Origin: a virus | Lineage: Duplodnaviria > Heunggongvirae > Uroviricota > Caudoviricetes | Virus record (IMG/VR): IMGVR_UViG_2711768074_000021 | DNA: 13,501 nucleotides | Direction: 5' to 3' (one strand) | Shown: positions 6,602 to 7,291 of the stretch, in pieces | Layout: each line of letters starts with the position of its first letter | Position numbering within the stretch: the first letter of the stretch is position 1 | Made by a program: the position numbers and the translations under genes | The notes under the pieces: model-generated | Seen by the model: only the letters and a program-made list of their open reading frames with translations | Databases searched by the model: none | What the model was told of the DNA's origin: nothing

Positions 6602-7291
6602 ATGAAGAACGTCAAAAACACGGAAAATCGAATAGCCGCGATGCTGAAAGCAAAAGGATGGACTCAGGCTCAACTGGCCCGCAAGTTAGGTGTGAGTGCG
6701 CAATCAGTGCAGTACTGGACAACAGGAAAAACATTTCCACGGAGTGATAAGCTCGCGCATTTATCAGAGATTAGCGGTTATCCACAATCCTGGTTCTTAG
6801 GTGAAGACTCCTCACCAACCTTTTCCTCGCAAGAGAAACACCAGACAAGAACAGATAGCGTCGTATTTAATGTCCTTGATGTTGAGTTTAGTTGCGGTGA
6901 TGGAACTCATGTCCGTGGTGACTTGATAGATGTAGTGCGCTCAATAGAACTTGATCCTGAATATGCCCGACGTCTTGTTGGAAATCGGGCATTCAAAAAT
7001 ATAGAAATAGGTAACGCCAGAGGAGACGGTATGGCTCCCACAATCTCACCTGGCGACCTTCTTTTTCTTGATAAGACAGTAACTTATTTTGATGGCGATG
7101 GTATTTATGCATTTTGTTTTGATGGAGAATGCTACGTGAAAAGGCTTCAAAAAATTGGAAGCAAAATCATGGTGTTATCTGATAACCCCAATTATCAACC
7201 ATGGAGCATCGAAAAAGAGGGGTTAGCTCTGCTTTATATCCAGTCTAAAGTGATCTCATCAGTACCATTCAACATAAACAGATTTGGTTAG
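6602..7291 (+). CDS. cI-like prophage repressor (N-terminal XRE-type HTH, C-terminal LexA/S24-like domain)
   Basis: HTH WTQAQLARKLGVSAQSVQYW. C-terminal region aligns by eye to LexA and lambda cI (GDGMAPTISPGDLLFLD ... CYVKRLQKIG). Start taken at the ATG at 6602 rather than the TTG at 6596. Confidence 0.85.
   Translation: MKNVKNTENRIAAMLKAKGWTQAQLARKLGVSAQSVQYWTTGKTFPRSDKLAHLSEISGYPQSWFLGEDSSPTFSSQEKHQTRTDSVVFNVLDVEFSCGDGTHVRGDLIDVVRSIELDPEYARRLVGNRAFKNIEIGNARGDGMAPTISPGDLLFLDKTVTYFDGDGIYAFCFDGECYVKRLQKIGSKIMVLSDNPNYQPWSIEKEGLALLYIQSKVISSVPFNINRFG

Follow-up and report, generated by a model that had tools for sequence, protein, structure and literature searches.

Is the CI-like repressor encoded in the viral record IMGVR_UViG_2711768074_000021 a member of a repressor class that does without self-cleavage, or an altered copy of an ordinary self-cleaving repressor? 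The window, by which we mean the whole stretch of 13,501 nucleotides (nt) analyzed, contains a cI gene whose product reads Gly-Asp-Gly-Met at the position of the catalytic Ser of the S24 family, and an earlier note made from the sequence alone had proposed that both the nucleophile and the cleavage site are missing. Comparison of close alleles indicates that the Ser-to-Gly change is one private nucleotide substitution, not a conserved feature. It is quite likely that S143G, in a canonical self-cleaving CI of one Escherichia coli clone, is a natural ind-minus-type allele that locks the prophage in by making it blind to the SOS signal. The repressor gene and the positions on which this reading depends are as follows.

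6602..7291, plus strand: cI repressor gene, 229 amino acids (aa), with an N-terminal helix-turn-helix (HTH) domain (HTH_3), a linker and a C-terminal Peptidase_S24 domain.
6893..6898, plus strand: codons Cys98-Gly99, the scissile-bond equivalent according to alignment columns, intact and of the UmuD Cys-Gly type.
7028..7030, plus strand: codon 143, where S24 proteins have their nucleophile; it reads GGT (Gly) here and AGT (Ser) in relatives, an A-to-G transition at nt 7028.
7139..7141, plus strand: AAA codon of Lys180, which represents the general base in the Ser/Lys dyad; kept and aligned to UmuD Lys97 in V-K-K-L.

In the Pfam search, the cI product matched HTH_3 at residues 11-52 (E=5e-8) and Peptidase_S24 (PF00717; E=9.4e-16, 58 bits against a cutoff of 23.3). 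It also matched PHROG 4 'transcriptional repressor' (E=8.7e-52), and the PHROGs label is transcriptional or CI-like repressor. The cI of Escherichia phage PhiR49_2 is 99.6% identical to the window cI, and the gene pair of that phage carries cI and Cro annotation. The C-terminal domain of the AlphaFold2 model has a predicted local distance difference test score of 85-94 and has the S24 fold, with Foldseek matches to LexA, lambda cI and UmuD' at probability 1.00; the 186 CI fold is also among the structural matches. By sequence, the nearest solved relatives are UmuD and UmuD', with ~30% identity over the C-terminal domain. The N-terminal HTH, a divergent cro-like gene, a PRM-like promoter, the location between the early-left and early-right operons and the gene order of PhiR49_2 are all those of a lambdoid CI, and the window cI thus encodes the repressor responsible for immunity in a lambdoid prophage. 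By descent the product is a member of the LexA/CI/UmuD type of S24 proteins (MEROPS S24), which retains the HTH, the fold, the Lys and the scissile bond, lacks the nucleophile and is predicted to be catalytically null.

The register of the active site was established with phmmer against all PDB chains, in which residues 138-207 aligned to UmuD and UmuD'. The G-D-G-M motif (residues 141-144, nt 7022..7033) lies under G-D-S-M of UmuD, with Gly143 in the column of UmuD Ser60, and V-K-R-L-Q lies under V-K-K-L-Q. A profile built from 28 family members gave the identical register against PDB (E=1.4e-10), and Lys180 is invariant in the family alignment. This formal S24 alignment, which the earlier note had named as a check, bears out both of its observations on the active site: the nucleophile column of the window copy holds Gly and not Ser, and the Lys of V-K-R-L is kept. 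Judged from these alignments, the motif is not a chance resemblance.

The C-G-D-G of the linker had also been taken as a sign that the cleavage site is missing, and here the alignments point the other way. The stretch F-S-C-G-D-G is conserved throughout the close clade and, in the alignment of the query with 55 homologues, falls together with V-S-A-G-P-G of relatives that are 35-40% identical; G99 and G101 are invariant and S97 is nearly so. The C98-G99 column of the family alignment is that of UmuD C24-G25, LexA A84-G85 and lambda cI A111-G112, the three reference sequences having been entered by hand. Cys24-Gly25 is the natural scissile bond of UmuD (PMC5342242). The match of the family profile to PDB stops short of this region, and the assignment of the site rests on the MAFFT alignments, by which the cleavage site is present in its Cys-Gly form.

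The distribution of the Gly allele decides whether its absence of a nucleophile belongs to the family or to one copy. All 55 homologues from a large protein search have GDSM, including proteins that are 98%, 97% and 94% identical, as do the other motif-spanning members of the 90% cluster among those listed. The commonest member of this cluster was found on at least 1000 contigs, versus 11 for the exact Gly form. An 81-nt stretch around the Gly codon had no exact match in the 74 complete E. coli genomes with this cI allele group, which were drawn from 5426 complete E. coli genomes. A degenerate exact-flank scan recovered 64 copies from IMG/VR and metagenomes (63 with AGT and one with GGT), and the single IMG/VR contig with GGT matches the window at 100% identity over 9.7 kb. 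The Gly allele also had no match in an exact 41-nt scan of GTDB species representatives, which is uninformative because the Gly clone is no species representative.

The other determinants of cleavage are conserved as well. The Ser, the Lys and the (A/C)-G pair are kept in 55 of 55 homologues; among the environmental copies of full length, 60 of 61 keep them. Other amino-acid variation in these 61 copies lies nearly all in the linker (residues 53-108), with no variation at Lys180, one C98S allele and no broken open reading frame (ORF). The C98S allele, which changes the scissile-bond position, belongs to an otherwise normal cI copy among the IMG/VR and metagenome loci (L024-L087). Compared with WP_000800136.1, the CI of O55:H7 RM12579, O111:H8 8E and phage PhiR49_2, the window product differs by S143G only; the second nucleotide difference within cI (7207) is synonymous. 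Over the 9.5-kb early region, the window and RM12579 differ by 8 single-nucleotide polymorphisms (SNPs) and one 12-bp indel. Some E. coli genomes hold two copies of this cI group.

The GGT codon is real and clonal. The identical Gly143 protein was found in 11 distinct assemblies or runs, both long- and short-read, two of which are chromosome-scale (>5 Mb) NCTC contigs; among the carriers is assembly GCA_001284325.1, whose contig CYGG01000099.1 corresponds to the whole window. A sequencing error as the source of GGT was rejected, as these 11 assemblies and the IMG/VR contig agree. All carriers represent one haplotype that is virtually invariant over ~10 kb. Every Gly-allele contig that reaches far enough (including L004, L005 and L007) has the same junction with an insertion sequence (IS) at 9655/9656, and in both chromosome-scale assemblies the prophage adjoins mlrA (yehV). 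Thus, Gly143 is a clonal allele that belongs to one small E. coli clone, as opposed to a variant that has arisen repeatedly. The element at the junction is the following.

9656..10417, plus strand: left part of an IS911-like IS3 element, which interrupts the early-left region; the window matches RM12579 only to 9655.

Before these distributions are considered, the Gly at the nucleophile position and the resemblance of the cI model to the 186 CI fold would suit a repressor class without self-cleavage, inactivated by an antirepressor that is encoded either by a Rha-family neighbor or by a LexA-controlled gene elsewhere in the prophage. However, the CI family uniformly has Ser and Lys with a conserved Cys-Gly or Ala-Gly pair, and the Gly allele is private and one nucleotide away from the common allele, being confined to one clone; therefore, it gives no sign of a phage evolved for induction by an antirepressor. 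A repressor that lacks the catalytic Ser by design, as first proposed, is not found beyond the window copy and its clone, given that 55 of 55 homologues and 63 of 64 environmental copies have Ser. As a family property, this alternative is largely refuted, and we consider it very unlikely overall. The neighboring genes from which it draws further support were analyzed together with their regulatory RNAs.

5474..6181, minus strand: first 'Rha-family' gene, 235 aa, a Roi/Ant-like DNA-binding protein of the early-right operon (PHROG 63; Roi in PhiR49_2).
4517..5071, minus strand: second Rha-family gene, a candidate AnrP-like antirepressor of 184 aa from the internal ATG 5071.
5232..5308, minus strand: isrK-like small RNA with its own terminator (Rfam RF01394, 62.3 bits against a gathering score of 50).
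5123..5210, minus strand: C4 antisense RNA, full length (Rfam RF01695, 75.1 bits against a gathering score of 45).
5283..5277 (a1), 5268..5260 (b1), 5118..5112 (a2) and 5088..5079 (b2), minus strand: C4 target sites by computed complementarity.

The product of the first gene matches Phage_pRha of Pfam below the cutoff (25.6 bits) and PHROG 63 'anti-repressor Ant' with E=3e-46. The second gene lies in a 282-aa ORF (4517..5365, minus strand) annotated as a Rha family phage regulatory protein, with a Phage_pRha match at residues 120-205 (E=2.4e-32). The first third of this 'Ash + Rha' ORF is taken up by the isrK and C4 RNA genes, and its Pfam Phage_ASH match (residues 16-110), which covers exactly the RNA-coding stretch, may be RNA genes read as protein. 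The second Rha coding sequence probably starts at ATG 5071, as predicted from the arrangement of the module.

In phage P1, the immI architecture is that of a C4 antisense RNA controlling an antirepressor gene, and the module in the window is of this type. The loops of C4 (nt 60-66 and 44-53) are complementary to duplicated a and b targets: a1 and b1 lie within isrK, where a c4-a1b1 match of Rfam is seen below the threshold, and a2 and b2 lie downstream, with b2 (5088..5079) abutting the ribosome-binding site of ATG 5071. A frame similar to orf45, 45 codons long from the Met at 5206, overlaps C4 and has no stop before ATG 5071, which results in an in-frame fusion to the Rha gene. The same type of layout ahead of the downstream gene is found in the immI locus of P1 and P7 (c4 RNA-icd-ant). 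It is also that of isrK-orf45-anrP in Gifsy-1, where the downstream protein behaves as an antirepressor (PMC4825925). Unlike in these systems, the window module is located between the Roi-like gene and the replication genes in the early-right operon, it encodes a Rha-family protein, not P1 Ant, and its orf45-like frame is fused to the Rha gene, a fusion that the Gifsy-1 paper notes for S. dysenteriae.

An antirepressor-like function near cI is thus plausible by homology to Rha and anti-repressor PHROGs and by likeness to AnrP, and by analogy a RecA-independent route of derepression is conceivable for this phage family as a whole, not for the Gly allele specifically. The PHROG labels of the neighbors and the isrK/C4 RNAs ahead of the second Rha gene, as for P1 ant and Gifsy-1 anrP, would fit a repressor class dependent on an antirepressor; against it, both Rha-family genes and the isrK/C4 module are the same in Ser-bearing relatives. 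Their products are identical or near-identical in RM12579, 8E and PhiR49_2 (the first product is WP_001090259.1 in RM12579 and 8E), and the genes follow cro within the operon under repression by CI. Because Ser-bearing relatives have them, the Rha-family genes belong to the normal early-right operon and are not a compensation for the lost nucleophile. The earlier note was right that two Rha-family regulators are encoded nearby; the idea that they replace RecA-dependent induction falls with the presence of both in the Ser-bearing relatives.

Nor did the LexA boxes depart from chance. In the window, we counted five one-mismatch matches to CTGT-N8-ACAG versus 4.4 expected, none with conserved context, and no AT-rich CTG-N10-CAG box was found near the regulatory genes; the search covered the window, and the rest of the prophage was viewed only in part. 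A candidate at 7364..7379 (CTGT-N8-ACAT), in the spacer of the promoter that follows cI, was rejected, as it is without the conserved CAG and absent from a heteroimmune relative.

The favored reading of S143G as a natural ind-minus-type allele can be put as a sequence of steps. The ancestral CI would have been a self-cleaving HTH and S24 repressor with a Ser/Lys dyad and a UmuD-type Cys-Gly bond, encoded by a prophage at mlrA (yehV). In one clone, the A-to-G change at nt 7028 replaced the presumed nucleophile Ser143 by Gly and left the DNA-binding domain, the dimerizing S24 fold, Lys180 and Cys98-Gly99 untouched. The Gly143 CI should still repress and may still bind activated RecA, and the acyl-enzyme step would be beyond it. 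As its S24 nucleophile has been lost, the window copy very probably cannot self-cleave; with the HTH, the fold, the Lys and the Cys-Gly pair kept, normal repression that is blind to the SOS signal is therefore expected. The prophage is probably unable to respond to DNA damage and would stay in the chromosome save for rare stochastic derepression. The proposal of a non-self-cleaving repressor is thus very probably correct for this copy, and it holds neither for the repressor family nor in its assumption of a missing site.

The phenotype expected of this allele is that of known laboratory mutants. LexA S119A, commonly used as the non-cleavable form, retains its binding to RecA* (PMC3159453). In the mouse gut, 1-2% of cells undergo lambda induction per generation; a cI ind-minus allele lowers induction ~1000-fold and abolishes the fitness cost of lysogeny (PMC4752277). 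The Gly allele may have spread since a host whose prophage is not inducible is spared the cost of induction; a prophage still able to kill on induction is costly, which makes selection for S143G a reasonable supposition. Ser-bearing relatives with 93-94% identity are the CI of the long-tailed Stx2 phages of O145:H28, for which the paper on these phages reports that mitomycin C raised the phage copy number in every K-12 lysogen tested, least efficiently in CI-5; this response fits a CI family that is normally SOS-responsive. For phage PhiR49_2/ECOR13, the literature search found no paper describing its induction.

Several points weigh against the lock-in reading. Loss of cleavage, retained repression and spread of the allele are deduced from the sequence. 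The hit on the catalytic codon, one among ~6-8 substitutions in 9.5 kb, may suggest positive selection, although it was picked out post hoc. The AlphaFold2 model has low confidence, and is unreliable, at residues 72-110 and so speaks neither for nor against a Cys-Gly loop docked in the active site. The O145:H28 relatives are probably of the 'CI-5' type, as judged from the text of the Stx2-phage paper and not from its tables. Finally, the IS911 insertion with its 2.2-kb deletion may already have impaired the prophage, in which case S143G could be neutral decay.

This last possibility deserves separate consideration: if the insertion and deletion had crippled the prophage, S143G would be a random hit that was not opposed by selection for inducibility. 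In line with this, IS911 is common to all Gly contigs that reach the junction, and the clone differs from RM12579 by no more than a few substitutions. In the long-read assemblies, an intact 1249-bp IS911 stands in place of 2191 bp of the early-left region, with xis, int and mlrA next to it. However, the lost segment holds only accessory genes of the ea22/DUF4752 type. In the long assembly of the clone, the replication genes, Q, two holins, an endolysin and the Nu1/GpA terminase genes are still called on one side of IS911, and excisionase and integrase beyond it; the prophage is seemingly complete and does not look dead. In addition, cI is full-length with no other amino-acid change, a random substitution on exactly the nucleophile codon is improbable, and an ind-minus allele directly benefits the host of a prophage that is still lethal (PMC4752277). 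On balance, neutral decay is unlikely.

A further alternative keeps the prophage inducible. The Gly143 CI could be cut at Cys-Gly by a co-resident Ser-bearing S24 repressor from a related prophage, so that polylysogens remain SOS-inducible. UmuD, which together with UmuD' is the closest solved relative by sequence, can cleave in trans (PMC5342242). In its favor are also the two copies of this cI group in some E. coli genomes. Against this, no second related cI was seen in the window. For LexA and lambda CI, cleavage in trans is known to be very inefficient. We regard this alternative as extremely improbable.

S143G as a lock-in allele can be set against several known systems. Lambda cI ind-minus and LexA S119A share the two-domain architecture and the Ser/Lys chemistry with the window CI and, by analogy, the expected phenotype of an SOS-blind repressor. 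In lambda, the classical ind-minus allele affects a different part of the C-terminal domain. These are laboratory alleles, whereas the window allele is natural, persists in a wild E. coli clone and has Gly instead of Ala (in LexA S119A) at the nucleophile. UmuD has the GD[S]M and VK[KR]LQ motifs and the Cys-Gly scissile bond in common with the window CI; unlike it, UmuD lacks a DNA-binding domain and acts as a polymerase manager instead of repressing genes. The CI proteins of the phages at mlrA/yehV and of the O145:H28 Stx2 phages (WP_000800136.1 and PhiR49_2 cI among them) are 93-99.6% identical to the window CI, share the order of cro, the Roi-like gene, isrK/C4-Rha, replication genes and Q, and all have Ser143. 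In 186 CI/Tum and in Gifsy GfoR/GfhR, self-cleavage is absent family-wide and a LexA-controlled antirepressor acts instead (for GfoR/GfhR, PMC3121763), while the family of the window CI is catalytically competent; because the dyad is not absent family-wide, the window CI falls outside this class.

This finding suggests that a wild E. coli lineage can neutralize a prophage that is still dangerous by one nucleotide in the active site of its repressor. S143G would be a natural counterpart of the laboratory ind-minus alleles, involving no new mechanism and no new class of repressor, and it fits experimental evidence that lysogeny in the gut is costly mainly through SOS-driven induction (PMC4752277). 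As regards annotation, a single genome with 'GDGM' does not define a repressor class, and comparison with close alleles decides. Such comparison may be of use in predicting prophage inducibility from sequence, including that of Stx-phage relatives with this type of CI.

The control region between cI and cro and the genes beside cI contain further variation of the clone. The following features were assigned.

6178..6468, minus strand: cro-like gene, 96 aa, with a YdaS/P22_Cro-type HTH (Pfam YdaS_toxin, E=1.4e-12, and P22_Cro; Cro in PhiR49_2).
6469..6601: divergent cI-cro regulatory region.
6530..6557, plus strand: PRM-like promoter GTTACA-16-TAAAAT, a consensus match only.
6494..6489, minus strand: -10 of the best PR-like candidate, TTTAAA-18-TATAAA, from a relaxed scan and a consensus match only.
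7303..7327, plus strand: intrinsic terminator-like hairpin and T-run directly 3' of cI, from a terminator scan.
7356..7986, plus strand: strong promoter-like site TTGACA-17-TAATAT (10/12) following the cI terminator, and then a 182-aa gene.

The cro-like gene is divergent from cI and 133 bp apart. The promoter scanner called no leftward PR in this region, the candidate coming from the relaxed scan, and a search of the intergenic region with the repeat finder gave no operator repeats. CAAG and CTTGAT motifs were read there by hand. A T-to-C SNP at 6491 is confined to the window and two further loci (L013 and L059), with T in 31 of 31 scorable Ser loci. It turns the -10 of the predicted PR-like promoter from TATAAA into TATGAA and could be a second lock-in mutation, if this consensus match is indeed a promoter.

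The 182-aa product (ATG 7438) has a C-terminal HTH_3, matches PHROG 4836 'CII-like regulator' and is similar in its N-terminal part to the ORF that follows, 8115..8480 (PHROG 5451/4587). The gene occupies the position of accessory genes expressed in lysogeny. Eight nt upstream of its ATG, nt 7430 is tri-allelic in the Gly143 clone, which elsewhere hardly varies (5 assemblies with G, 3 with A and 3 with T), and 26 of 27 Ser143 loci have G; recurrent mutation or selection may account for this variation.

It can be speculated that S143G was positively selected as a first step of lock-in, followed by the change at nt 6491 and the recurrent changes at nt 7430, while the isrK/C4-gated AnrP-like protein can still awaken a prophage that carries cargo. 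If so, the clone turned an SOS-inducible phage into an SOS-blind, RNA-gated one. We consider this stepwise scenario decidedly unlikely. The possible cargo lies outside the window, at 12315..14038 of another locus of the clone (L014), where a 396-aa AAA_15 ATPase and a 177-aa protein are encoded between Q and a methyltransferase; RM12579 is without this pair at that place. The pair could be anti-phage defense cargo, giving the host a reason to keep the prophage.

The right end of the window (9656..13501) consists of repeats only. In addition to the IS911 part given above, it contains the following elements.

9728..10030: IS911-like orfA.
From ~10418: group II intron, with a reverse transcriptase/maturase ORF at 11074..12597 and domain V-VI (RF00029) at 12601..12687.
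12714..13160: 3' part of a different IS3-family transposase.
13203..13501: IS66 tnpC fragment.

The linkage of these elements in the short-read contig may be an artefact of the path through repeats, because two long-read assemblies of the same clone differ there. The 12-bp indel relative to O55:H7 RM12579, AGATGAAGATGA at 8839..8850, has a further copy in another locus of the clone (L007); its site is a slippage-prone coding repeat, because it lies inside the Asp/Glu-rich repeat that ends ORF 8675..8875. Finally, one Gly143 assembly (L009) shows a cluster of 10 substitutions in an 80-bp stretch of the Rha gene (window-equivalent 4772..4850), which looks like a gene-conversion patch from a paralogous prophage.

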